11,745 bases of DNA from a virus (IMGVR_UViG_2778261203_000004), one strand, 5' to 3'. Counted from the first letter of the stretch, positions 1 through 11,745 are shown. The notes: a model not told the origin generated them from the letters alone. A program made the numbers and translations.

Positions 1-1236
1 CTACGATAACCGCGCATTCAACATGGCTATCTGTTCGTCGTTCATGTCATCAATCCACATACCGTAAATTTCATACACCATCTGCGCAGTTTCATGCCCC
101 ATTTGGCTGGCTATAAATGCCGGGTTCGCTCCTGCCGTCAACAGCCAGCAGGCAAAAGTATGCCGCGTATGGTACGGATTACGGCGGCGAATACCAGCAC
201 GTTTTACTGCTGCATTCCACCTTGCCCCCAAACTGCTTACCGAGTAATAAGGTTTTTGTTTTCCGTTACACACCCTGGGCATGAAAACAAAATGCAGTTT
301 TTGCTTTTCGGTTCTGCCGTACTCCCGATGATAAAAGGTGATTTCGCTTTTGCGATGATGCCCGGTCAGTTTGTATTGCTCCTTCAGTGCTTCAAGAGCA
401 GGCTGCAGTAGTGTTACTGTTCGGATCCCGGCATTTGTTTTTGGGGGGCCGAACATATCAAGTATCGTCAGGTTTCTTCTGACATTCACTATTCCCTTTT
501 CGAGATCCACATCCTCCCACGCCAGAGCTGCCAGTTCCCCGTGACGAAGTCCTGAGTAAACGGCAAATTTCCACAAGTTCTGGCTCTGTCCTTTTTCACT
601 TTCCATTAATGCATTGAATTCTGTTTTAGATAACGGATCAGGCTTTATTCTGTTTCGCTGTAATTTTTTTACTCCTTCAAATGGTTTGGTTGATATAAAT
701 CCCGACTGATACGCAAAACGCAACAGCGAACAGAGCAGGGCGATATAGTTATCAACTGTGCGCACGGTTCTTCCTTTTTTGTTGGATCTTGGATTATCCA
801 GGTAAAGCGTTTCTCCATGCAGCAGTTCATTCCGGTAGTTTAAGATATCGCTATAACGAATATGTGATATCGGGGTACTTTCACAAATTATTATTCTGAG
901 TATTTTTAATTGTGATTTCGTTTTCTTCATTGTGTTTGTTGTTAACTCTGTCTCTTTAATTTTTGTCCAGATATCACAAAGCTCTCCGAACGTTTTTATG
1001 ACTCTCGTTGTCACCATTTTTGCCCCAGTGCTGGACTGGGGAAAACGTCTTAAATACTCAAATTCACCGGAGTTTATTTCATGAACTATCAGCGCTCTTA
1101 AATTTCCGGCCTTTTTAATATTACTGTTTGTAATCTCCCAGCCTTTTAATGTTTCCCGACATCGTTTTCCTCGAAACATGAACCAGATGCGAATGTATCT
1201 ACCTCTAATCTCGACACCTGTTGGTAATTTAGACAT
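1..1236 (-). CDS. intR: Prophage integrase, tyrosine recombinase family (411 aa)
   Basis: Full 411 aa ORF; start ATG at 1234-1236 (complement), stop at 1-3. C-terminal region has the H-x-x-R and catalytic Tyr context typical of tyrosine recombinases (YHTRHTFA ... VYEIYG). N-terminus MSKLPTGVEIRGRYIRIWF recognised from memory as Rac IntR. Confidence 0.9.
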   Translation of the reverse strand: MSKLPTGVEIRGRYIRIWFMFRGKRCRETLKGWEITNSNIKKAGNLRALIVHEINSGEFEYLRRFPQSSTGAKMVTTRVIKTFGELCDIWTKIKETELTTNTMKKTKSQLKILRIIICESTPISHIRYSDILNYRNELLHGETLYLDNPRSNKKGRTVRTVDNYIALLCSLLRFAYQSGFISTKPFEGVKKLQRNRIKPDPLSKTEFNALMESEKGQSQNLWKFAVYSGLRHGELAALAWEDVDLEKGIVNVRRNLTILDMFGPPKTNAGIRTVTLLQPALEALKEQYKLTGHHRKSEITFYHREYGRTEKQKLHFVFMPRVCNGKQKPYYSVSSLGARWNAAVKRAGIRRRNPYHTRHTFACWLLTAGANPAFIASQMGHETAQMVYEIYGMWIDDMNDEQIAMLNARLS

Positions 1237-1237
1237 A

Positions 1238-1453
1238 TCATGAGTCTTTGATAAACTGATTTATCTTTGGATAGTTGTACCAGATAATCCCTCGTTTGCT
1301 GTCTGGCTTACCTAAAGGAGATACTCGTTTGAAGTGGAAGCCCTCCACCCAACAGTTCTGGCGGTATGCTTCAATTTGTCTGGCCCCCAGACCAGTGCGA
1401 AGCATCAGGCCGTATTCAACCATCCACTCTTCATTAAAGATTACTTGTGCCAT
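1238..1453 (-). CDS. xisR: Excisionase-like small DNA-binding protein (71 aa from ATG at 1453; track ORF extends to a TTG at 1477)
   Basis: Small ORF immediately upstream of the integrase; its stop (1238-1240) is 1 nt from the int start. ATG at 1453 is preceded by GAGGTGA at about 5 nt spacing. The track's upstream start is TTG (complement of caa at 1475-1477), which I consider less likely. Confidence 0.7.
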
Positions 1454-1531
1454 CGCATCACCTCTGGCAGGCGCCAATGTTAGACTGAAATTGACGCCCG
1501 ATGTTGATTATTAATAATCAGCTATGAAGTT

Positions 1532-1741
1532 TTAATTTGAATACAATGCAATTCTCGAGGACTGAAGTTTCTCGCAATTAAAATTTATCAGTTTTACTTT
1601 CTGCTCTCTGGAAACGCCTGCTTCTTTTTTACCTGAGAGCATTTTTTCGCATTCTGATTTCGTTAGTTTAGATTTTGAATATCTTGTCCAGTTAGTAGGA
1701 GTGCCACCTTCCTTTTCAATAGTGGCGGTAATTTTATACAT
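1532..1741 (-). CDS. ydaC: Small prophage protein of unknown function (69 aa)
   Basis: The track ORF 1532..1813 would overlap ralR by 80 nt. The internal ATG at 1741 (MYKITATIEKEGG...) is preceded by a strong GGAGGTG Shine-Dalgarno and gives 69 aa, with only an 8 nt overlap with the ralR 3' end. Confidence 0.65.
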   Translation of the reverse strand: MYKITATIEKEGGTPTNWTRYSKSKLTKSECEKMLSGKKEAGVSREQKVKLINFNCEKLQSSRIALYSN

Positions 1742-1928
1742 GAACACCTCCATTATTATTTCCAGTGGTTCGTTTATTCCATCTTTCGAGTGCTTCTTTT
1801 TCACTTCCACCATAACCGGTTCGGGATTCGCATCCGTTACACTTCGCTCGGTAATATCCTGAAATGGCTTTCACCGTTACTGATGGGCAACCACAAAATG
1901 GACATGGTTTAATATTGTCATATCTCAT
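1734..1928 (-). CDS. ralR: RalR/Lar-like restriction-alleviation protein, type I toxin (64 aa)
   Basis: Translation MRYDNIKPCPFCGCPSVTVKAISGYYRAKCNGCESRTGYGGSEKEALERWNKRTTGNNNGGVHV with two CxxC pairs. Start at ATG 1928 chosen over the upstream ATGs at 1940 and 1967, which lack a ribosome-binding site. Recognised from memory as Rac RalR. Confidence 0.75.
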   Translation of the reverse strand: MRYDNIKPCPFCGCPSVTVKAISGYYRAKCNGCESRTGYGGSEKEALERWNKRTTGNNNGGVHV

Positions 1929-1984
1929 AATTTTTCTCATAAAAAATATTTCAAGTTGGCGGTGCATTACACCGCCAGGCTGAA

Positions 1985-2794
1985 TTATTCCTCTGAATTA
2001 TCGATTACACTGTATTCCCCGGTTAATACAGAGGAATCTGCAGGATCGATTGTCAGTGGTTCCTTTTCATCCATTGATACTGCACGCTGGATCTCAATTG
2101 ATACGGGCAAATATTTGAACAGGCGACGAATAGCCGTTTTCTTTGCCATTTCTTCCCAGTGAGTTACCCACGGCCCGTTATTACCAGCTTTACTCAGGCT
2201 GCGCACCAGCTCAATCTGTTTGCGCGTCATAACTTCAAACTGAGTACCTCCGTCTTTCAGTCTTGCGACAGCATAGACGTGGGTAACCGGGGCATCTTCG
2301 TTTTCTCCCGGGCGGTGTATTAACTTTTCATCAAGGCCAAATTCGAAGCTAAACTCGTCACCTTCACGGACAACACGGGCTGACAGGCTGGCGATTTGAC
2401 CAGAACGGCGAGCCAGATCAATCATGCCGCGATAGCCAATGATTAGCTGAACGTTCTTTTTATCGCTCTTTTCGTTTTTATTACCAAAAGGCAGTAAATA
2501 TGCATGACCGAGGGCGCTACCTGGCTCAAGTCCGAGCTGTGAACACTGTACGATCGCACTGACAAAACTCATAGTGTCACAGTTTCCTAACGCCGGAACT
2601 TTACGAATTTCTGTGGTGGCGATACGGATCATACGTTCAGCCGTCATATGGCGTGGAAGAGCTGCTGCCAGTTGCTCTTTCATTGATGGCTGGTTAATAA
2701 AACTAATCACGTCGCTATTTTTAACTGCTGCTGGTGCACGGTTTCCCTGAGTTTTTTGCAGATCGGCTTTTGCGATTGGTGGTTGCTTAGTCAT
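1985..2794 (-). CDS. recT: RecT single-strand annealing protein (269 aa)
   Basis: Protein begins [24 protein letters not shown]. The ATG at 2794 is preceded by AAGGAA at about 9 nt, whereas the track's longer N-terminus (ATG at 2851) has none. The 3' end of recE overlaps it by 8 nt, suggesting translational coupling. Confidence 0.9.
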
Positions 2795-5387
2795 TTGCAT
2801 ATTCCTTAGCCCAGCGGGGCAGTGATAATGTCTTAATAGCTGGCCATTCATCGGTATTCAGGCAGTCAGACAGGGTTCGCAGATTGCGGTGATATTCCTG
2901 TTGACCTGCCAGTTTTGCTTCTTCGCCCATCATGAAAATTTCAACCGGATAACGTCCGCATTCAATAGTTGTGCTGGCAACCAGAAAAACGAAAGTTGGC
3001 TGCACTCCAAACTGTGCTTCATAACCGTCACTGTAGAATGCATCCTGAACGTGATAGCGGTAGTCGTAATAAGCGGTTTTGAATCGTTGAATATCCGCCG
3101 TAGTTTTCACGTCCATGATCCAGTGAAATTCAGGGATAATTTTGTCCGGACGGCACCGACACAAAATTCCTGTTTCAGGATCTTCCCAGTAAATTGATGA
3201 TTCAGCGTGTCCGGCGCTTTCAACAAGCCATTGCCCCAGCGGCAAAGCCATAACGCTTTGATACATGAGTTCAATTTTCCGGCCTTCTTCCGCAGTGATA
3301 ACCGTTTTTCCTGTGCTTGCGCATTCCATCAGAAACGCTTTCTCTTCTTCTTTTCCGGCGTTTGTACGGCGGTTAAATTCAGGTGCTACGATAAAGCGGT
3401 TACTGAATTCTTCCGGTTCAAGTACCCGGCAGTGGAAAGCAGTTCCTAAATCGAGCGTTTTTGTCTTTGTGGTGTCCACGGGGGCATTTTTACGCCACAA
3501 ATATAGTGCCGGAGTATCAGCAATGTCATCGAGCTGAGACTTACTGATACCGGGACCCGCGTGGTAATTCTCATTCGAAATTCCGTAATAAATACCTGGC
3601 TCTATGTCTTCTACGATTACGGGATCTGCGACTTCGCCAGTTTCATCACTGCAATCGCGATGCGGATCGCTGCCAGCATTCTCATTGTGCGGATGTTCAG
3701 CGCCTTCCATTTCCTCCGGATCATTTTCCTTAGCTTCAACCTGACTCTCTTCATCGAATGTTTCCTGGTATGTTGCGTCGCCCATCACCGCACCACAGTC
3801 AGGGCAGTTATCCCCGCCAGTCTGGCCGCAGGCATTGCAGGCTATTTCCGGTTCCTGTTGCACTACTGGCTCAGGTTGATTCATATCCGGGCTGGTTTTT
3901 TCCGTTTCTGGCTGGTTCTGGTACACACAATCGCGAGTCTGGATCCCCTTTACCCATTTCGGATCGTTCGGGTCGCTAATTCCGTCAACAAATTCATCAC
4001 GTGATGCAGCAAGCAATTTATCGGCATCGACAGGATTTTTTGATGGAATGTTTTTCCGGGCTTCATGGAGTTCTGCCCGCAGTTCCTGATATTTCGCATC
4101 AACAGAATTTACCTGTGACTGAGCATCCAGCGGCTGCGTGTCCTGATGATGTTCAGTTGCGTCCGGTTCCATTGTTTCAGCCTCTCCCTGTTCAACTGCC
4201 GTTGTTCCAGATGGTTGCGGTTTTTCTTCATCATCCTGTTTTCCTTCTTCTGTTACTCGCTGCGGCATCGGGGCAGAGGAGCGACCGCAGGCAATATCCA
4301 CGATTTCCGGATCAGGGTTGGCATGATCGGTTTCAGTCAGTACTTTGTTCAGATATTCAGTGACGTGCGCGGGGATGACCTCGATCCCAATTGGTGCTTC
4401 TTTTACGGACGCAACCACGATGGCGCGGGAATAATCCAGCCCGCCAGGCATGGTGATGAATTTGTCGCGGAAAACAGAAAAGGGCGGTTTATTTTCAGCG
4501 ATAATTTCCTCAATGCGTTTAGCGTGTGCCGGATGAAGGTTATAGATGTCCAGATCCATTGAACGGGCCAGTACGCCAGTGGCTACGTCGCGCGCCAGTG
4601 ACGTCAGATCGTGTACGAAACCTTCGCCGCGATCGGTGAGGTTTCCGCCGCCAGCATTAGCACCGGAAGCCGTGCGAGTGATGTGTGAAACACGATTACC
4701 CTTCATCCACTCTTTTGTCAGCAGTCCTCGATCGGTGTAGTCAGCGTTCAGGTATGCTTCGAAAAAAGCAGTTATCAGTCCCAGGTTTGAATTACCAGGA
4801 TTAGGGAAAACTTTGTCAGTGTCACGAACCAGTTTGTGGAGTTCGCGAATTTCCAGCGGGTCGAGCAGGCTGGTTTTGTGGGAAACAGCCAGGGCAGTAA
4901 CAGCCGGTAGTTCTTCAGCCCGAGCAATGTGTAATGCCTGGAGTCCGTCGCGTGAAACGTGCGTTACCGGTTTTTCGCTGCCGTGTTGAGCAAGCCAACG
5001 AATGGGCAGTTCCTGGCCAGAAATTGGGAGTAGCATATTCTCCTCAATCTCAGTCATGTCTTCGCCGTTGACGTTGGTATTGCCTTGATAGTGAGCGTTG
5101 TCTGGTGCTGCTCCCGGTTTTAGTTCCCATGTCATGGAGTCTTTGCTGAGTTGATAGCGTTCACTCCAGGTAAAATCGATCTCACCTTCAGCGGGCAGGT
5201 CATTAACGACAGGAAAATTCGTGGCAACAGCTTTAAAATAGCTGCTCAGTTTTTTACCTGACTTAACGATCAGGTAGTCCAGAGTGGCACAGGTCGATTC
5301 AAAATCGTTGCTTGCCCACAGGACGACGTCAGGTTCACCGGATGATTTTTTCGCTTTCCGTAACAGGAAGAGTGGTTTTGTGCTCAT
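2787..5387 (-). CDS. recE: RecE exonuclease VIII (866 aa)
   Basis: Single 866 aa ORF; GAGG Shine-Dalgarno upstream of ATG at 5387. Long acidic, low-complexity N-terminal and central region, then a C-terminal nuclease region. Directly upstream of recT with an 8 nt overlap. Confidence 0.9.
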
Positions 5388-5458
5388 TGTTTTTTAACCT
5401 CAACTCAGATTAAAATTCGTTTTGTTCAGTGAATGATCTTGCCGGATACACACTGTTC

Positions 5459-5483
5459 ATAGCCTGCGCCATACGCAGGCTAT
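5459..5483. other. Perfect 10 bp stem / 5 nt loop hairpin in the racC-recE intercistronic region
   Basis: ATAGCCTGCG ccata CGCAGGCTAT, every stem position pairs. On the + strand it is followed by TTTCTTTC; on the minus-strand (operon) transcript it sits between the racC stop (5489-5491) and the recE ribosome-binding site. Confidence 0.5.
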
Positions 5484-5488
5484 TTCTT

Positions 5489-5764
5489 TCAGATTTCACC
5501 TTTTAATTTCATTGCAATTAGAGTTGCCAGAAATTCGGCTTTTTTTTCTGCGGGCAGATTCTTTCCGATATGCACCAGGCACATTTTTTTGACACCTTCA
5601 TCAAGTGTTTTTACGTTGCCTGATGGACCATCGATATCAACCACAGTGAATGGGGTTTCTTTATTTTCTGTTTTAATTACGTAGCCAATGCGCTTTCCTT
5701 CCAGATTCACCTCGTGAACAATGTCATCGGTAGTTACAACAGTGGCTTCATAATTGGTAATCAT
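5489..5764 (-). CDS. racC: Small prophage protein RacC, function unknown (91 aa)
   Basis: 91 aa ORF with a perfect AAGGAG Shine-Dalgarno (complement of 5768-5773) upstream of ATG at 5764. Sequence MITNYEATVVTTDDIVHEV recognised from memory. Confidence 0.8.
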   Translation of the reverse strand: MITNYEATVVTTDDIVHEVNLEGKRIGYVIKTENKETPFTVVDIDGPSGNVKTLDEGVKKMCLVHIGKNLPAEKKAEFLATLIAMKLKGEI

Positions 5765-5837
5765 GTTTTTCTCCTTAATTAGGTTGAGCGAATACCTGCC
5801 ATTTCTGGCATAAATTCAGTTTCGAATAGTCAATTAA

Positions 5838-6008
5838 TTAAAGTTCATGTGCCATCTGGTCTTTTTCGGCACAAGCTTCACTGCAATATTTTCTCGGTTC
5901 GTCTTTTGATAAAATCCCGTGCATGAAGTGAAGCATTCTTTCAATAGCTTTGCTTTCTTCAACGTCTTTTTTGCAAAGGTGGTAAGCACATTTTATTTTC
6001 TTAGTCAT
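5838..6008 (-). CDS. ydaE: Small Cys4 putative zinc-binding protein (56 aa)
   Basis: Below the 60 aa cut-off of the ORF track. My hand translation of the complement from 6008 gives [56 protein letters not shown], stop at 5838-5840. Cys at positions 7, 12, 42 and 46. The ATG overlaps the kilR stop as ATGA; GGAG sits about 9 nt upstream. Confidence 0.7.
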   Translation of the reverse strand: MTKKIKCAYHLCKKDVEESKAIERMLHFMHGILSKDEPRKYCSEACAEKDQMAHEL

Positions 6009-6229
6009 CACCATGACTCCGCCTTTACAGGTAAACCATCACGACCGAGGAAGACTTTAATCATGCGGTCAGTAATGCATGTTTTTGTGGTCAGGTTACG
6101 AATATATAGTTTTCGCTTTTTAATATTGTTTGCCGAGGCAATATATGTCCGGCCTTCATGAAGAACATAATCGCCAGGAGTCACACACTGACGTGGTATT
6201 TCATCAGTTCCGAAGTGATGTGCAATCAT
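6008..6229 (-). CDS. kilR: KilR, prophage Kil-type cell-division inhibitor (73 aa)
   Basis: [46 protein letters not shown]...; ATG at 6229 preceded by TGGAGAT. The track ORF starts 4 codons further upstream without a ribosome-binding site. Confidence 0.8.
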
Positions 6230-6404
6230 AATTATCTCCATTTTTACAAATGAACTTTGTTGATGCGGTGCCTGGTGCCTCCAGGTGACTGCAACCAGTT
6301 AACAATTACAGTCGGCTTTCCCACCCAAACCAATAAGGACTAACATGACTTTTAACTGTGCCACGTGCGCTTAGCCGCATTCACCGCATCACAAAATTCA
6401 CTTT

Positions 6405-6452
6405 AAAAAGGGCGGACATCAGCCGAACTTCAAGAAAAAAACTGATGCCGCC
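6405..6452 (-). terminator. Candidate imperfect stem-loop followed by a T5 run on the minus strand, inside the kilR-sieB gap
   Basis: Minus-strand reading: GGCGGCATCAG - about 19 nt loop - CTGATGTCCGCC, then CTTTTTAAAG. The stem has one bulge and the loop is long for an intrinsic terminator, so this is weak. Confidence 0.25.
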
Positions 6453-6670
6453 AGGACTACACACAGCAATGTCGTTATTTACAACCGGAGGCGCACTCCC
6501 ACCATTTAAATTTAACAGACAAGACCGACTCTTTATGGATATCGGAAATGCGCCTTCGTGTTGTGCCCGGTTTTATTTCACCACCTCCGGGCTTCGGTGG
6601 TCTCGGCTATACCCCTACAGCGAGAGCTTGTGTTAACATTTCAATACCCTTACAGTTGAGAGTTATTGAT

Positions 6671-7159
6671 ATGTTGGATGTATTTACTCCATTGTTGAAA
6701 CTTTTTGCTAACGAGCCACTCGAAAGACTTATGTATACGATTATCATTTTTGGTCTCACTCTCTGGCTGATACCGAAAGAGTTTACTGTCGCATTCAATG
6801 CTTATACTGAAATACCTTGGCTCTTTCAGATTATCGTTTTTGCCTTTTCTTTCGTGGTCGCCATTTCCTTCTCAAGATTGCGAGCACATATTCAAAAGCA
6901 TTATTCATTACTGCCAGAGCAACGAGTATTGCTTCGTTTATCTGAGAAAGAAATCGCTGTATTTAAAGATTTCCTTAAAACAGGAAATCTTATTATCACT
7001 TCTCCTTGCCGTAACCCGGTTATGAAAAAATTAGAACGGAAGGGCATCATTCAACATCAGAGTGATAGCGCAAACTGTTCTTATTATCTCGTCACCGAAA
7101 AATACTCCCATTTTATGAAGTTATTCTGGAACAGCAGGAGTAGACGTTTTAATCGTTAG
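6671..7159 (+). CDS. sieB: SieB superinfection-exclusion membrane protein (162 aa)
   Basis: Start taken at ATG 6671 (MLDVFTPLLKLFANEPLERLMYTIIIFGLTLWLIP...), not the track's upstream ATG at 6548. Two hydrophobic helices (TIIIFGLTLWLI; WLFQIIVFAFSFVVAISF). It is the only + strand gene inside the leftward block. Confidence 0.8.
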   Translation: MLDVFTPLLKLFANEPLERLMYTIIIFGLTLWLIPKEFTVAFNAYTEIPWLFQIIVFAFSFVVAISFSRLRAHIQKHYSLLPEQRVLLRLSEKEIAVFKDFLKTGNLIITSPCRNPVMKKLERKGIIQHQSDSANCSYYLVTEKYSHFMKLFWNSRSRRFNR

Positions 7160-7311
7160 CTTACTGTGTGCTTCTCCAACCATCGGCGCGCACCAGTTTC
7201 GGTTTTAAATGTTTTGCTTTTGGTATACGTCATGGCAGTGAACGTTCCATCCTGGTTGGGGAACACGCCGCACACCAGGGATTCGTTGTTGCCGAGGTCG
7301 ATTTTTTGCAT
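7156..7311 (-). CDS. ydaF: Small hypothetical prophage protein (51 aa)
   Basis: Below the track cut-off. My translation of the complement from ATG 7311: MQKIDLGNNESLVCGVFPNQDGTFTAMTYTKSKTFKTETGARRWLEKHTVS, stop at 7156-7158. Converges on sieB with a 4 nt overlap. Weak ribosome-binding site. Confidence 0.55.
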   Translation of the reverse strand: MQKIDLGNNESLVCGVFPNQDGTFTAMTYTKSKTFKTETGARRWLEKHTVS

Positions 7312-7321
7312 TTTGCGAATC

Positions 7322-7456
7322 TCACATCTTGTTGCTACGTATAGCGACTTCTGCCTGCCAGAGATCCCAGTCGTTGCTGCGTAAAGCCTGCACAGCCTGG
7401 TTGTAAGTGATACCGCAACAATCCATCAAATACTGAACTACTTCGTAATGCACCAT
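7322..7456 (-). CDS. ydaG: Small hypothetical prophage protein (44 aa)
   Basis: Below the track cut-off. My translation from ATG 7456: MVHYEVVQYLMDCCGITYNQAVQALRSNDWDLWQAEVAIRSNKM, stop at 7322-7324. AAGGGGA about 12 nt upstream. Sits 10 nt upstream of ydaF. Confidence 0.55.
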   Translation of the reverse strand: MVHYEVVQYLMDCCGITYNQAVQALRSNDWDLWQAEVAIRSNKM

Positions 7457-7619
7457 CTTATCTATCCCCTTAACGCCGGGTGGCGGAACTAACTGCTGCA
7501 CTGCAAAATTTGAATCCCGCCGTCATGTTCATACGCCTCGGGCTGGCTACTTAACCCCTGACCACTGCCTGGTAACTCGAAGTATTGCCCGGCGTTCTGT
7601 GGGGCGGGGTGGGTTGGTA

Positions 7620-7672
7620 GGTATATAATGTACTTTGTGTTCATCATTGTAAAGTACTTTAAGTACATTTTA
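7620..7672. promoter_or_regulatory. AT-rich block with three GTACT-core sites; candidate leftward promoter/operator region
   Basis: ATGTACT at 7628-7634, palindrome AAGTACTT at 7652-7659, AGTACAT (ATGTACT on the minus strand) at 7662-7668; TATAAT at 7623-7628. Lies between the racR 3' end and the ydaG start. The same ATGTACT heptamer occurs twice in the racR-ydaS control region. Confidence 0.35.
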
Positions 7673-7743
7673 TGTATAAAAAAATGAGACGGGATAAAGT
7701 GAAGCACAAACCCGGAGGGGGACGCTACCGGATTTATGCTGGT

Positions 7744-8163
7744 TTAAGAGGCTTTTTGTTTTTTCTTTCGTGCTAACTCTTCGTAAATTGCATTGTACTT
7801 CTGTTTTTTCTCCTCAAGAGTTTTTAAAAGTTCATCTGTCTCACTGTCAGGGAGCTCGTCCAGAAGGTCAATGATGATTTTTTGTCTTGGATTTAACTCC
7901 TGATAGAAACGTATCTGTCCACTTTCTTCTGTATCCTCTCCCAAAAGATAGGTTGGTGTTGTTCCAATGAGTGTTGCTAATTCCCTTAATTTCTCTCGGC
8001 GAGGAATTGTTTCACCATTAAACCATTTGCTAACCGCTTTTGGTGTTAATTTCATTCGACGGGCAATTTCTGCCTGCCTTCCATGTTGTTCATAACCAGC
8101 GTTTTCACAGGCTAGCGCAAGCCTACTGGCGAACTCTTTACGCGCTTTATCTTCATGAACCAT
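7744..8163 (-). CDS. racR: RacR, CI-like prophage repressor with helix-turn-helix (139 aa in this sequence)
   Basis: Helix-turn-helix segment RQAEIARRMKLTPKAVSKWFNGETIP. No ATG, GTG or TTG lies in frame between 8163 and the upstream stop at 8218-8220, so the ATG at 8163 is the only start. No obvious Shine-Dalgarno, so it may be translated from a leaderless or short-leader mRNA. Confidence 0.85.
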   Translation of the reverse strand: MVHEDKARKEFASRLALACENAGYEQHGRQAEIARRMKLTPKAVSKWFNGETIPRREKLRELATLIGTTPTYLLGEDTEESGQIRFYQELNPRQKIIIDLLDELPDSETDELLKTLEEKKQKYNAIYEELARKKKQKAS

Positions 8164-8242
8164 AAGTTCAATGATATTCGCTCTTGAATGTACTGTCAGT
8201 TCTGTTATAGCATGTACTCAAAGTTCACATTGTGAGGGTGAT
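8164..8242. promoter_or_regulatory. Divergent racR / ydaS promoter-operator region (79 bp)
   Basis: ATGTACT at 8188-8194 and 8212-8218; AAGTTCA at 8164-8170 and 8221-8227; inverted repeat TTCAA-N12-TTGAA at 8166-8187. A candidate rightward promoter is TTGAAT (8184-8189), 16 bp spacer, TATAGC (8206-8211); the heptamers overlap its -35 and start region. GAGGGTGAT ribosome-binding site precedes the ydaS ATG at 8243. Confidence 0.5.
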
Positions 8243-8497
8243 ATGAACCAGAAAACACTTGAAGATGTAATCAAAACTGTTCGCGTTTCTGTTGTGGCCG
8301 ACGTTTGTGGTGTCAGCCAAAGAGCAATCTACAAATGGATGGATAACGGAAAATTGCCTCGCACAGAATATACCGGCGAAACAAATTACGCTGAAAAAAT
8401 CGCTCATGCATCAAACGGATTATTTTCTGCCGATGCAATTTTAACTATTGGCAGAAATAAAACTACTACGAAAAAGCTGATGGGAGTTGATTCATGA
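8243..8497 (+). CDS. ydaS: YdaS, Cro-like helix-turn-helix protein (84 aa from ATG 8243; track ORF starts at 8171)
   Basis: Helix-turn-helix VADVCGVSQRAIYKWMDNGKLP. ATG 8243 has a GAGGG Shine-Dalgarno; the ATG at 8171 would leave only 7 bp between divergent genes and has no ribosome-binding site. The stop overlaps the ydaT start as ATGA. Confidence 0.7.
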   Translation: MNQKTLEDVIKTVRVSVVADVCGVSQRAIYKWMDNGKLPRTEYTGETNYAEKIAHASNGLFSADAILTIGRNKTTTKKLMGVDS

Positions 8498-8916
8498 AAA
8501 TCAAGCATGAGCACATCGAATCAGTGTTGTTAGCCCTGGCAGCCGAAAAAGGGCAGGCGTGGGTCGCTAACGCAATTACTGAAGAATATCTGCGCCAGGG
8601 GGGCGGCGAATTGCCCCTGGTACCAGGCAAGGACTGGAACAATCAGCAGAATATCTATCATCGTTGGTTGAAAGGTGAAACGAATGCGCAAAGGGAAAAA
8701 ATTCAGAAACTGATCCCTGCGGTTCTGGCAATTCTTCCTCGCGAGCTGCGTCACCGACTCTGCATCTTCGATACCCTGGAACGCCGTGCATTACTGGCGG
8801 CACAGGATGCACTGAGTACGGCAATTGATGCGCATGATGATGCAGTCCAGGCCGTTTACCGTAAAGCACATTTCAGCGGCGGCGGTTCTCCTAGCGATTC
8901 TGTCGTAGTGCATTGA
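8494..8916 (+). CDS. ydaT: YdaT, CII-like / toxic prophage protein (140 aa)
   Basis: 140 aa ORF, GGGAG Shine-Dalgarno at 8480-8484, start overlapping the ydaS stop. Sequence MKIKHEHIESVLLALAAEKGQAWVANAITEEYL recognised from memory. Confidence 0.8.
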   Translation: MKIKHEHIESVLLALAAEKGQAWVANAITEEYLRQGGGELPLVPGKDWNNQQNIYHRWLKGETNAQREKIQKLIPAVLAILPRELRHRLCIFDTLERRALLAAQDALSTAIDAHDDAVQAVYRKAHFSGGGSPSDSVVVH

Positions 8917-8928
8917 TTGAAATTAATC

Positions 8929-8952
8929 GTACCGAACTGTTTTGTTCGGTAT
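8929..8952 (+). other. Stem-loop immediately downstream of ydaT (8 bp stem, 6 nt loop)
   Basis: TACCGAAC tgtttt GTTCGGTA. No clear U-tract follows, so it is not a convincing intrinsic terminator; it may be a processing or attenuation structure ahead of ydaU. Confidence 0.3.
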
Positions 8953-8960
8953 CAGTTAAA

Positions 8961-8981
8961 TGTAACGCTGCGAGCGTTACA
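8961..8981. repeat. Palindrome TGTAACGCT-gcg-AGCGTTACA, copy 1 (intergenic, 13 bp upstream of the ydaU ATG)
   Basis: Perfect 9 bp inverted arms with a 3 bp centre; it overlaps the ydaU ribosome-binding-site region. Confidence 0.7.
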
Positions 8982-8993
8982 AGGTGAAAACAA

Positions 8994-9782
8994 ATGGCTT
9001 CAAACTGGATAAAGCTCGAAGTTATTACGCCGGATAAGCCGGAAATATTCAGGCTTGCTGAGATTCTGAATATTGATCCAGATGCCGCATTAGGGAAAGT
9101 CATTCGCTTCTGGGCATGGGCGGATCAACAAATGATAGACGGTAACGCAGAGTGTAACGCTCGCGGCGTTACAAAAAGTGCAATAGATCGCATCACTTTT
9201 ATGGCTGGTTTTGCTGATGCGTTAATTCAGGTTGGATGGCTGGTCGAAACTAATGGTGTGTTGTCGCTTCCTAACTTTGAGCGCCATAACGGGAAAAGCT
9301 CTAAAAAACGGGCGGTTACAAACGAGAGAGTAACAAAAATACGAGAACTGAAACGAAAAGGTAACGCTGCCAGCGTTACAAAAACGGATCAAAAAGCGTT
9401 ACCAGAGGAAGAGAAAGAGGAAGATATAAATACTTATCTCCCCCTAAATCCCCCTCGCCAAAAACGAGCGTCTAAAAAATTCGAACCGGAGGCTATCGAG
9501 CTGCCTGACTGGTTGCCGGAAACACTCTGGCATGAGTGGGTTCAGTTCAGGCAGGCATTGCGAAAACCGATTCGAACGGAGCAGGGCGCTAACGGGGCGA
9601 TACGGGAGCTGGAAAAATTCCGCCAGCAGGGTTTTTCACCTGAGCAGGTGATTCGACACAGCATCGCCAACGAATACCAGGGCTTGTTCGCGCCGAAAGG
9701 TGTTCGACCTGAGACGTTACTCCGACAGGTTAACACCGTCTCGTTACCGGATAGTGCGATCCCGCCAGGCTTCAGGGGGTAA
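8994..9782 (+). CDS. ydaU: YdaU, putative replication-initiator (lambda O-like role) protein (262 aa)
   Basis: ATG 8994 preceded by AAGGTGA; an in-frame stop at 8985-8987 excludes a longer N-terminus. Position directly upstream of the DnaC-like loader, and the internal palindromes, support an initiator role. Confidence 0.8.
   Translation: MASNWIKLEVITPDKPEIFRLAEILNIDPDAALGKVIRFWAWADQQMIDGNAECNARGVTKSAIDRITFMAGFADALIQVGWLVETNGVLSLPNFERHNGKSSKKRAVTNERVTKIRELKRKGNAASVTKTDQKALPEEEKEEDINTYLPLNPPRQKRASKKFEPEAIELPDWLPETLWHEWVQFRQALRKPIRTEQGANGAIRELEKFRQQGFSPEQVIRHSIANEYQGLFAPKGVRPETLLRQVNTVSLPDSAIPPGFRG
9153..9173. repeat. Palindrome TGTAACGC-tcgcg-GCGTTACA, copy 2 (inside ydaU)
   Basis: 8 bp inverted arms; an extra half-site GTAACGC lies at 9142-9148. 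Encodes the peptide ECNARGVTK. Confidence 0.7.
9361..9380. repeat. Palindrome GTAACGCTG-c-CAGCGTTAC(A), copy 3 (inside ydaU)
   Basis: Perfect 9 bp arms. Further half-sites at 9313-9320 (CGGTTACA), 9330-9335 (GTAACA) and 9386-9392 (GCGTTAC). Encodes KGNAASVTK. Followed by an A-rich, purine-rich tract at 9400-9480. Confidence 0.7.
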
Positions 9783-9788
9783 CTGACC

Positions 9789-10535
9789 ATGAAAAATATT
9801 GCGACAGGCGACGTTCTTGAACGTATCCGCAGACTGGCCCCGTCACATGTAACCGCGCCATTCAAGACGGTAGCGGAGTGGCGCGAGTGGCAACTTTCCG
9901 AAGGCCAGAAACGTTGTGAGGAGATCAACCGTCAGAATCGTCAGTTGCGGGTGGAAAAAATTCTGAATCGCTCTGGCATCCAGCCATTGCACCGCAAATG
10001 CTCGTTTTCGAATTACCAGGTGCAGAACGAAGGGCAGCGATACGCGTTGAGTCAGGCGAAATCCATCGCTGATGAACTGATGACCGGGTGTACAAATTTT
10101 GCGTTCAGCGGAAAACCTGGTACCGGGAAGAACCACTTAGCGGCAGCTATCGGGAATCGCCTGCTGAAAGACGGTCAGACAGTGATTGTGGTTACCGTGG
10201 CTGATGTTATGAGTGCCCTGCACGCCAGCTATGACGATGGGCAGTCAGGCGAAAAATTTTTGCGGGAACTGTGCGAAGTGGATCTGCTGGTTCTTGATGA
10301 AATTGGCATTCAGCGCGAGACGAAAAACGAGCAGGTGGTACTGCACCAGATTGTTGATCGCCGGACAGCGTCGATGCGCAGCGTGGGGATGCTGACAAAC
10401 CTGAACTATGAGGCCATGAAAACATTGCTCGGCGAGCGGATTATGGATCGCATGACCATGAACGGCGGGCGATGGGTGAATTTTAACTGGGAGAGCTGGC
10501 GTCCGAATGTCGTCCAGCCAGGAATTGCGAAGTAA
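9789..10535 (+). CDS. ydaV: YdaV, DnaC/IstB-like AAA+ helicase-loader ATPase (248 aa)
   Basis: Walker [16 protein letters not shown] and Walker B LLVLDEIG motifs; GGGGG Shine-Dalgarno 6-10 nt upstream of the ATG. Confidence 0.85.
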
Positions 10536-10557
10536 TTTTTACCGGGAGAAAAATTTA

Positions 10558-11319
10558 ATGGAGACTGTTTTTGACGCACTGAAAGCAATGGGAAAAGCCA
10601 CATCCATAGAACTTGCTGCGCGACTTGATATCAGTCGTGAAGAAGTGCTGAACGAACTATGGGAACTGAAAAAGGCTGGTTTTGTTGATAAAAGCGCGTA
10701 CACCTGGCGTGTGGCTGATAACAATGTTCAGCAGGAACAGCCAGCGCAGGCAGAACTGCCGGAAGAAATCACCACAGCAACAGTAGCGAAAATCTCAGAG
10801 TGCGATTTAACCGCGACGATTGAACAACGAGGACCACAAACGGCTGATGAGCTGGCTACATTGTTTGGTACCACATCACGCAAAGTGGCTTCAACGCTGG
10901 CAATGGCAATCAGCAAAGGTCGTCTGATTCGCGTAAATCAGGGCGGTAAATTTCGTTACTGCATACCGGGCGATAATTTACCAGCAGAGCCGAAAGCAGC
11001 ATCGGTAGCGGAAACTGATGGTAAGGCCTTTCCTCAGACCGCAGGTGTTGCGTTACCAGTACAGGAGGCTGCAACACAGGAAGATATTAAAACAGAAACT
11101 GTGGCGGACATTGTGCAGTCGCTGCCATCGTTTACTGAAACGCGAGCGGATGACCTGGTTTTACCATCACTGCATATGGCAAACCGCGAACTGCGTCGGG
11201 CGAAAAATCATGTCCAGAAGTGGGAGCGTGTCTGCGCCGCGCTGCGTGAGTTGAACAAGCACAGGGATATTGTACGACAGATTACTGATTCTTCCCGCCA
11301 TGTTGCATCGGAAAAGTGA
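10558..11319 (+). CDS. ydaW: Hypothetical prophage protein at the ydaW position (253 aa from ATG 10558; track ORF 270 aa from 10507)
   Basis: ATG 10558 is preceded by GGGAGA at about 9 nt, whereas ATG 10507 would overlap ydaV by 29 nt. The symbol is assigned by position after ydaV; from memory the K-12 copy is truncated while this ORF is full length, so the assignment is tentative. Confidence 0.55.
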
Positions 11320-11334
11320 TTGCCGGAGGCACCT

Positions 11335-11745
11335 ATGGCAAAAGTATTTACACCAGAAGAGCGAGAAAAAATTAAAGGACAGGTTGTTGAACTTGTACCT
11401 CTGAGCGGTCGCGAGACGTTACGGGCTCTGGAGGCTAAAACCGGTGCATCAAGGTATTACATAAGCACTCTCGCCAGAGAACTAGTCGCCAGTGGTGATG
11501 TTTACAATTCAGGCTACGGATTATTCCCGTCTGAGCAGGCGCGTAAAGACTGGCAAAACGCCCGCAAAAAACTATCAAGGACAAAGGTGAAGAAACCGGT
11601 TGTGGTTGATCCTGACCTTATTGGTAAGCCCGAAGAACTGGATACTTCGGCACGTAATGCCGGGGCTCTAACCCGCCGCCGCGAAATTCGTGATGCTGCA
11701 ACTCTGCTACGTCTGGGGCTGGCTTACGGCCCCGGGGGGATGTCA
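11335..11745 (+). CDS. Hypothetical protein, 3' partial (runs off the window end; at least 137 aa)
   Basis: ATG 11335 preceded by GGAGG (11324-11328); open to the window end (MAKVFTPEEREKIKGQVVELVPLSGRETLRALEAKTGASRYYISTLAREL...). Absent from the ORF track because no stop is reached. I do not recognise it. Confidence 0.5.
   Translation, partial: MAKVFTPEEREKIKGQVVELVPLSGRETLRALEAKTGASRYYISTLARELVASGDVYNSGYGLFPSEQARKDWQNARKKLSRTKVKKPVVVDPDLIGKPEELDTSARNAGALTRRREIRDAATLLRLGLAYGPGGMS

Follow-up and report, generated by a model that had tools for sequence, protein, structure and literature searches.

In phage lambda, the Ren protein is needed for escape from Rex. The Rex proteins are reported to interact with O and Ren in a two-hybrid assay (bioRxiv 10.1101/2021.04.19.439022). 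In the Rac prophage of Escherichia coli K-12, the gene that follows the helicase-loader gene ydaV is ydaW (b1361), which has been listed among the prophage-gene blockers of RcaT, the toxin of retron-Sen2 (bioRxiv 10.1101/2020.06.22.160242); the length difference of YdaW between K-12 and other strains is already in print (PMC9308461). For the DUF977 family, a winged helix was predicted earlier (PMC2686095).

This study analysed the two open reading frames behind ydaV (ORF A and ORF B) in a stretch of viral DNA of 11,745 nucleotides (IMGVR_UViG_2778261203_000004, the window), which had previously been described by a sequence-only reading made without database searches. The window covers the left arm of a prophage of the Rac type, 11.7 kb from the intR stop codon onward, with the gene order recT, recE, kilR, sieB, immunity region, ydaT, ydaU (8994-9782), and ydaV (Table 1). 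According to blastn, similarity to the Rac prophage of K-12 MG1655 is patchy across the window: positions 1-7619 are 99.8% identical, 7620-8487 (repressor/cro) are unrelated, 8488-8914 (ydaT) are 92.8% identical, 8915-9524 (the 5' half of ydaU) are again unrelated, and 9525-11007 are 99.4% identical, with no K-12 similarity beyond 11007. The ydaV gene, the last replication gene upstream of ORF A, is itself 99.4% identical to K-12. From ydaV onward, the window holds the last part of the early-right (replication) operon of a lambdoid prophage of the Rac type. Both ORFs belong to already-known and very abundant families of Rac-type prophages, to which a strain-specific rearrangement is added; nothing is unusual except a non-canonical junction between DUF977 and IS421 that is specific to the strain.

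Table 1. Features of the ydaV to IS421 region, in window coordinates
Feature	Position	Strand	Basis
ydaV, DnaC/IstB-like helicase-loader gene	9789..10535	+	Pfam IstB_IS21 E 9e-20, Bac_DnaA E 9e-9
ORF A ribosome-binding site GGGAGA, 8 nt 5' of ATG 10558	10544..10549	+	read from sequence
ORF A, full-length YdaW-family / DUF1627, 253 aa	10558..11319	+	Pfam PF07789, phrog_630, RefSeq
ORF A residues 1-49, predicted first winged-helix/HTH, containing the 19-residue segment of the sequence-only reading	10558..10704	+	Pfam, AlphaFold2
ORF A residues 50-76, acidic Q-rich linker, predicted disordered	10705..10785	+	pLDDT <50 (AlphaFold2)
ORF A residues 78-137, predicted second winged-helix, three helices and beta-hairpin wing	10789..10968	+	AlphaFold2 pLDDT 83-87
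Final base of collinearity with the Rac prophage of K-12 MG1655 (NC_000913.3 position 1423201)	11007	+	blastn, junction translations
ORF A residues 203-252, predicted long C-terminal helix	11164..11313	+	AlphaFold2 pLDDT 68-83
ORF B ribosome-binding site GGAGG, 5 nt 5' of ATG 11335	11325..11329	+	read from sequence
ORF B, first 96 codons of DUF977 / LygF / Ren-like gene	11335..11621	+	Pfam PF06163, phrog_142
TAT microhomology at the DUF977/IS421 junction	11619..11621	+	window vs intact DUF977 (L001) vs IS421 (L003)
IS421/IS186 (IS4 family) interior, IS nucleotides 97-223	11619..11745	+	exact match to IS421 copies

The DUF1627 gene and its K-12 counterpart

The open frame of ORF A extends over 10507-11319 and would encode 270 amino acids from the first in-frame ATG at 10507; this start is disfavoured because it falls within the last part of ydaV and outside the coverage of the family profiles. 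ATG 10558 is the start that fits the DUF1627 family, giving a predicted protein of 253 amino acids. The sequence-only reading had proposed a complete ORF of 253-270 amino acids after ydaV, and completeness is borne out for the shorter form: phrog_630 aligns with residues 1-249 over profile positions 1-252 of 253 (E 1.4e-131), and Pfam DUF1627 is matched over its whole length (positions 1-155 of 155) with 328 bits (E 9.8e-99) against a curated gathering cut-off of 28.1. Judged by these profile scores, the match of the predicted protein to DUF1627 is far beyond chance. In relatives, RefSeq annotates the same 762-nt CDS as 'DUF1627 domain-containing protein'. Public assemblies contain the exact ORF A protein in 5691 indexed blocks, and thousands of E. 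coli assemblies carry it in identical form; 2533 clusters at 90% identity are related to it. Counted in clusters at 50% identity, this is a small family, with 186 of 1.84 billion representatives at E <= 1e-3.

K-12 YdaW occupies the same position after ydaV as ORF A and is 186 amino acids long; its residues 1-150 are identical to ORF A and are followed by 36 unrelated residues. The K-12 joint falls after codon 150, and the 36-codon tail is read from an Rz-like lysis gene. Both sides of the joint can be placed on a more intact Rac prophage, that of E. coli MIN6 (L014): the last base common to K-12 and the window maps to 12608, and the K-12 sequence past the joint maps to 21799 onward, inside the Rz-like lysis gene, and therefore about 9.2 kb was lost in K-12. 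As read from these alignments, the comparison shows K-12 ydaW to be the same gene as ORF A, cut after codon 150 by a deletion of about 9.2 kb. Past 11007, the window does not carry the K-12-type truncated allele but keeps DUF1627 family sequence to the full 253 amino acids. K-12 YdaW is without the predicted second disordered linker and C-terminal helix that ORF A has and, unlike K-12 YdaW, the full 253-residue form is found in most E. coli. The sequence-only reading was thus correct in calling the K-12 Rac copy truncated, and the alignment to K-12 Rac that it proposed places the end of collinearity at 11007, with the window not identical to K-12 in this region. Its suggestion of a more intact Rac-like prophage holds only locally: the window goes on for about 620 nt past the point of the K-12 deletion, and the gene that follows is itself broken at codon 96 by the junction with IS421.

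The AlphaFold2 model of ORF A (mean pLDDT 63) predicts three ordered modules with moderate confidence, namely two winged helices and a C-terminal helix. Within the first module, helices are predicted at residues 4-11, 16-23, and 27-40 (pLDDT 76-84), and residues 4-46 give sub-threshold Pfam matches to HTH_20, HTH_Crp_2, TrmB, and MarR; NCBIfam and PADLOC returned weak generic HTH matches only. A Foldseek search of the PDB with the ORF A model likewise returned generic winged-helix proteins only (ArsR, MarR, FeoC, ScpB, and AspA; E >= 3.7e-3). The Pfam matches, the three predicted helices, and the Foldseek matches agree with the N-terminal helix-turn-helix-like segment that the earlier reading had predicted, and the acidic, Q-rich linker that it had described is also present, at residues ~50-76; it is predicted to be disordered and varies in length and sequence across the DUF1627 family.

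The predicted second winged-helix domain of ORF A has a weak Pfam match to FeoC (residues 84-130) and a weak match to the Ren-like family phrog_142 (residues 84-132). It is followed by a second predicted disordered linker at residues 140-200 (pLDDT <50) and by the C-terminal helix, which the model suggests is a probable coiled coil or oligomerisation element. This layout is kept in an alignment of 44 full-length relatives down to 21% identity, with the N-terminal HTH and the segment EIRRTK..L..LE..R in the C-terminal helix being the best conserved blocks among distant relatives. Sequence searches of the PDB gave no significant match for ORF A or for DUF977 proteins.

The DUF977 gene and its similarity to lambda Ren

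The ORF that begins at 11335 behind a GGAGG site had been noted in the sequence-only reading; the ATG and the GGAGG are both present, but its description as unrecognised does not stand. Pfam DUF977 matches ORF B with 44.2 bits, above the curated cut-off of 22.1, over profile positions 1-86 of 134 only, and phrog_142 ('Ren-like exclusion protein') matches with E 6.7e-24 over positions 1-90 of 116; intact 125-residue relatives score 78 bits against Pfam DUF977. Intact DUF977 alleles are 125-143 amino acids long. Residues 1-96 of ORF B are identical to the intact alleles P0001, P0002, and P0007, and the window DNA equals that of intact alleles up to 11621. Similarity of ORF B to its family stops at residue 96, so that a complete DUF977 protein with the C-terminal Ren motif is absent from the window. 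The earlier reading would have been refuted by well-characterised homologues of both ORFs, and this applies by half: homologues are extremely abundant and belong to named families, but none has a biochemically defined function.

Relatives of ORF B are named 'DUF977 family protein' in RefSeq and 'LygF' or 'Ren-like exclusion protein' in phage records. The name LygF goes back to Salmonella difference region I, for which such genes are listed alongside ydaO (PMC4490851). A literature search under LygF gave almost exclusively unrelated papers on lysozyme. The Rac attachment gene, ttcA, was formerly called ydaO. Proteins called LygF in phage records are 85-97% identical and belong to the ORF B family, as does the LygF from region Sdr I in Salmonella Enteritidis; the name LygF is a bare label without functional information; the LygF-family copy in the window is truncated, unlike the named LygF proteins.

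Lambda Ren (NP_040633, 96 aa) and DUF977 both match phrog_142, with E 1.6e-41 and E 1.5e-34, respectively. In a BLASTP comparison of lambda Ren with a 143-residue DUF977 allele (E 1e-6), the similarity is a 20-residue C-terminal motif (NLVFKECRQSAAMKRVLAVY / NIICRECRKSEVMQRVLAFY), whereas the same search against a 125-residue DUF977 allele and against ORF A gave results near noise; the Ren-DUF977 link is visible only with the 143-residue allele and the PHROG profile. The motif common to both proteins can be written as N-[LI]-[VI]-x-[KR]-E-C-R-x-S-x-x-M-x-R-V-L-A-x-Y, and in intact DUF977 alleles it reads N-I-I-C-R-E-C-R-K-S-E-V-M-Q-R-V-L-A-F-Y at residues 112-131. Based on the profile, the motif, and the position of the gene after the replication genes, DUF977 is a homologue of lambda Ren. 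The two proteins differ in that DUF977 is longer (125-143 aa) with an extra basic linker, and there is no BLASTP-detectable pairwise similarity outside the C-terminal motif; this motif of lambda Ren is missing from ORF B in the window.

The structure model of DUF977 is weak (mean pLDDT 61.5). A fold search with this model gave nothing significant (E >= 0.06), and PADLOC and NCBIfam gave no match for DUF977. The idea that ORF A arose as a tandem duplication of the Ren-like module was dropped because the hhalign comparison of DUF1627 with DUF977 was not significant (E 0.015, probability 3%).

The junction between DUF977 and IS421

The frame from ATG 11335 is open to 11745 and comprises 137 codons, of which only codons 1-96 are DUF977. 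The sequence-only reading held that ORF B continues past the end of the window, which is true of the open frame, but the continuation is IS421 transposase; ORF B seems to run past the window end because it is joined in frame to this transposase. DUF977 residues 1-96 are followed by the transposase from about residue 15 (GKPEELDTSARNAG...), and phrog_26653 aligns with ORF B residues 96-137 on profile positions 15-56. Where the intact alleles L001, L005, L011, and L014 read ...GACCTTATCTGGTCATTACC..., the window reads ...GACCTTATTGGTAAGCCCG.... The 127-nt tail of the window is identical to the IS421 copies in the loci L003, L005, and L009 and matches 2773 E. coli records annotated as 'IS4-like element IS421 family transposase'. 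The possibility that the junction lies at a natural module boundary of the variable region downstream was rejected because the intact alleles are mutually identical for at least 100 nt beyond the junction point.

The window is identical to IS186/IS421 over this tail, yet it does not contain an insertion end. The first matching IS nucleotide is number 97, which lies 96 nt inside the left inverted repeat (IR) and 41 nt inside the transposase ORF, so that the first 14 transposase codons are missing and codons ~15-56 are present. L003, L005, and L009 carry the 23-bp IR CATAAGCGCTAACTTAAGGGTTG, which is absent at the window junction; in L003 and L009, the point at which the match starts is 96 nt downstream of the left IR. 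With 8509 places in 2197 genomes, IS421 is an abundant, mobile element of E. coli, which would speak for its ordinary transposition into ORF B; however, a simple insertion always retains the IS end, and the window lacks both the left IR and the transposase start. An ordinary insertion is excluded because the IS end is missing, a canonical IS421 insertion was rejected on the absence of the IR, and we regard transposition into ORF B as scarcely credible.

More probably, a deletion mediated by microhomology joined the DUF977 gene to an IS421 that lay a few kb downstream in the same orientation, as in CP150019.1. In the Rac prophage of that record (L009), a same-orientation IS421 sits 3.7 kb downstream of DUF977, and we infer that a deletion of about 3.9 kb in an L009-like ancestor would produce exactly the junction of the window. 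The TAT microhomology at the junction, with imperfect flanking similarity (CCTTAT-TGGT vs CCATATTGGT), is typical of real illegitimate deletions.

These features, along with relatives that have a downstream IS421 in the right orientation, argue against the junction being an assembly or library chimera, in which case ORF B would really be intact at 125-143 amino acids and the IS421 would lie elsewhere. In favour of a chimera, an exact search with the junction 48-mer gave 0 matches in genome_contigs and metagenome_contigs, no complete E. coli genome spans the DUF977/IS421 junction, and the IS part, exactly 127 nt long, takes up the extreme end of the window, the place at which an assembly graph can be trusted least. 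The junction rests on this one window because it is absent from all collections searched. A de Bruijn contig, however, requires reads across the junction, and an intact path at normal coverage would be expected to carry the contig; on balance, we regard a chimera as improbable. The final 127 nt are pure IS repeat, and the window therefore probably stops at the end of an assembly contig; the circumstantial evidence suggests a short-read contig that ends at the repeat, with 127 nt being equal to an assembler k-mer size. The IS part is a deleted, immobile IS421 remnant or a mere contig-end overlap with one.

A microhomology-mediated deletion would have removed the conserved C-terminal Ren-like motif from ORF B. 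The truncation takes this motif, and ORF B is therefore most likely non-functional, that is, most likely a pseudogene in the window as judged from its sequence. A functional chimera, such as a retargeted or domesticated transposase made of Ren-like residues 1-96 and transposase from residue 15, would be in keeping with the frame being kept over the junction and open to the window end; yet an in-frame join arises by chance in one of three cases, the element is immobile because the left IS end is missing, the junction is unique in all searches and hence shows no sign of selection, and only transposase codons ~15-56 lie in the window. We consider such a chimera very improbable indeed. Overall, we consider the account of known prophage genes with a microhomology deletion into IS421 to be likely; the anti-exclusion reading that goes with it, discussed below, is weaker by itself.

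Gene neighbourhood and possible function

The gaps between ydaV and ORF A (22 nt) and between ORF A and ORF B (15 nt) are short, and no promoter- or terminator-like sites were found on the plus strand from ydaV to ORF B; from this arrangement, ORF A and ORF B are probably co-transcribed with the replication genes. DUF1627 lies downstream of the replication module in the window and in 11 related loci, and the order ydaU-ydaV-DUF1627-DUF977 is constant in these 11. DUF1627 also follows replication genes of other types, in the Shigella phage 75/02 Stx and an Actinobacillus phage, and a gene of the Ren/DUF977 type immediately follows the replication genes both in lambda and in replication modules of unrelated kinds; lambda Ren and DUF977 are alike in each being the first gene after replication genes. 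The DNA directly 3' of DUF977 varies among the 11 related loci. Among the cargo found at this place are TetR with adenosine deaminase, Ham1, and SIR2; GmrSD; IteA/IteS; KilA-N/BstA; and a Q-like gene with unknown genes. The site after DUF977 is apparently a prophage hot spot with interchangeable defence cargo in the relatives.

Going by the role of Ren in Rex escape, the two-hybrid interaction of Rex proteins with Ren, and the listing of K-12 ydaW among the RcaT blockers, both proteins may be early-operon winged-helix accessory factors that counter exclusion or abortive-infection systems. ORF A and DUF977 would be made with the replication genes and would help the phage to escape exclusion by the host or by prophages, rather than act as classical repressors. 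We offer this reading tentatively and hold it to be somewhat unlikely. The main rival is that DUF1627 and DUF977 are conventional DNA-binding regulators or origin/replisome accessory factors without a counter-defence role. The predicted winged-helix domains in both resemble the ArsR, MarR, DtxR, ScpB, and AspA classes, both genes invariably adjoin replication genes of whatever type, and the Thomason preprint has ren as 'likely involved in DNA replication'. Against this rival stand the lack of any identified operator or iteron partner and the scoring of the YdaW fragment of K-12 as a blocker of the retron toxin. Escape from Rex is, to our knowledge, the sole genetic phenotype of Ren, which also counts against a regulatory role. 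Weighing these points, we see a regulatory or replisome role as plausible, although short of probable.

A more specific form of the anti-exclusion reading would have DUF1627 and the Ren-like DUF977 act as a conserved counter-defence pair against Rex or retron toxins, which we regard as doubtful. Such a pair would sit at the entrance to the defence-cargo hot spot. The K-12 YdaW fragment, an RcaT blocker when overexpressed, retains both predicted winged helices; the blocking part could also be the foreign 36-residue tail, because the screen overexpressed the truncated K-12 chimera. If the counter-defence pair were true, the natural blocker of retron or abortive-infection systems would be YdaW in its full-length form rather than the K-12 stump.

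From these findings, ORF B is assigned and the end of the window is explained by the boundary of an IS421 repeat. That K-12 ydaW is a DUF1627'-'Rz deletion chimera matters for the reading of K-12 ydaW phenotypes, such as that of the retron-toxin blocker. Additionally, the sequence link between DUF977/LygF and Ren, with their common C-terminal motif, offers a starting point for functional tests on two families whose role is unknown.

Left end, immunity region and ydaU

The start of the window coincides exactly with the intR stop codon (positions 1-3, minus strand), and its last base, 11745, lies 127 nt inside IS421 and exactly on a codon boundary of the 137-codon reading frame that begins as the DUF977/LygF/Ren-like gene. 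Gene-call coordinates probably set the limits of the window, on a contig ending in the IS421 repeat. The RalA antitoxin sRNA, which lies opposite the ralR toxin region, was the sole Rfam match within the window.

The immunity region (7620-8487) is unlike that of the K-12 (MG1655) Rac prophage, with racR/ydaS of K-12 replaced by a different repressor and cro-like pair that is also present in three related Rac prophage loci (L012, L013 and L014). Further downstream, the ydaU gene was observed to be a mosaic: the 5' half, up to 9524, has no relation to K-12 ydaU, whereas the 3' half is 99% K-12-like. The 262-aa product had no Pfam match and thus lacks a DUF1376 domain; its RefSeq label is either 'hypothetical protein' or 'phage replication initiator YdaU family protein'.

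Coordinates of features in the window and in related Rac prophage loci
Feature	Locus	Position	Strand	Remark
RalA antitoxin sRNA	window	1557-1735	+	intact; Rfam RF02694, 225 bits
HTH_3-type repressor, 139 aa	window	7744-8163	-	at the racR/ydaS place of K-12
cro-like gene	window	ends 8497		other than that of K-12
ydaT	window	8494-8916		only 92.8% identity to K-12
ydaU	window	8994-9782		mosaic
Deletion	L001	572-2596		region in which recE is fused directly to ydaU
DUF977 codon 126	L001	5311-5313		TGA
Deletion	L011	5652-5978		region in which a truncated ydaV adjoins ydaG

Allelic variation and the segment downstream of DUF977

Codon 126 of DUF977 is TGA in the 125-aa alleles (as in L001) vs. CGA in the 140-143 aa alleles (as in L014, E. 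coli MIN6); therefore, RVLAFY, which belongs to the Ren-like motif, is already missing from the 125-aa allele. Separately, a DUF1627 variant from an ENA contig (P0122, 296 aa) carries a 43-residue insertion in which, judging by a 12-residue stretch that occurs twice, the first winged-helix region seems to be partly duplicated.

The segment directly 3' of the DUF977 gene, equivalent to positions beyond 11745 of the window, is highly variable among the related Rac prophages (L001, L004, L005, L007-L009 and L011-L014). Defence-type cargo is frequent there, and the cargo found includes TetR with adenosine deaminase, Ham1 and SIR2; GmrSD; IteA/IteS; KilA-N/BstA; and hok/gef. The interval between DUF977 and the DUF1367/YbcO/Q-like genes in these relatives resembles a prophage hot spot for defence cargo.

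Deletions across Rac prophages

Several relatives carry other internal Rac deletions, including those in L001 and L011. Rac prophage decay is a matter of many independent deletions, of which the ydaW'-'rzpR joint of K-12 is one example.
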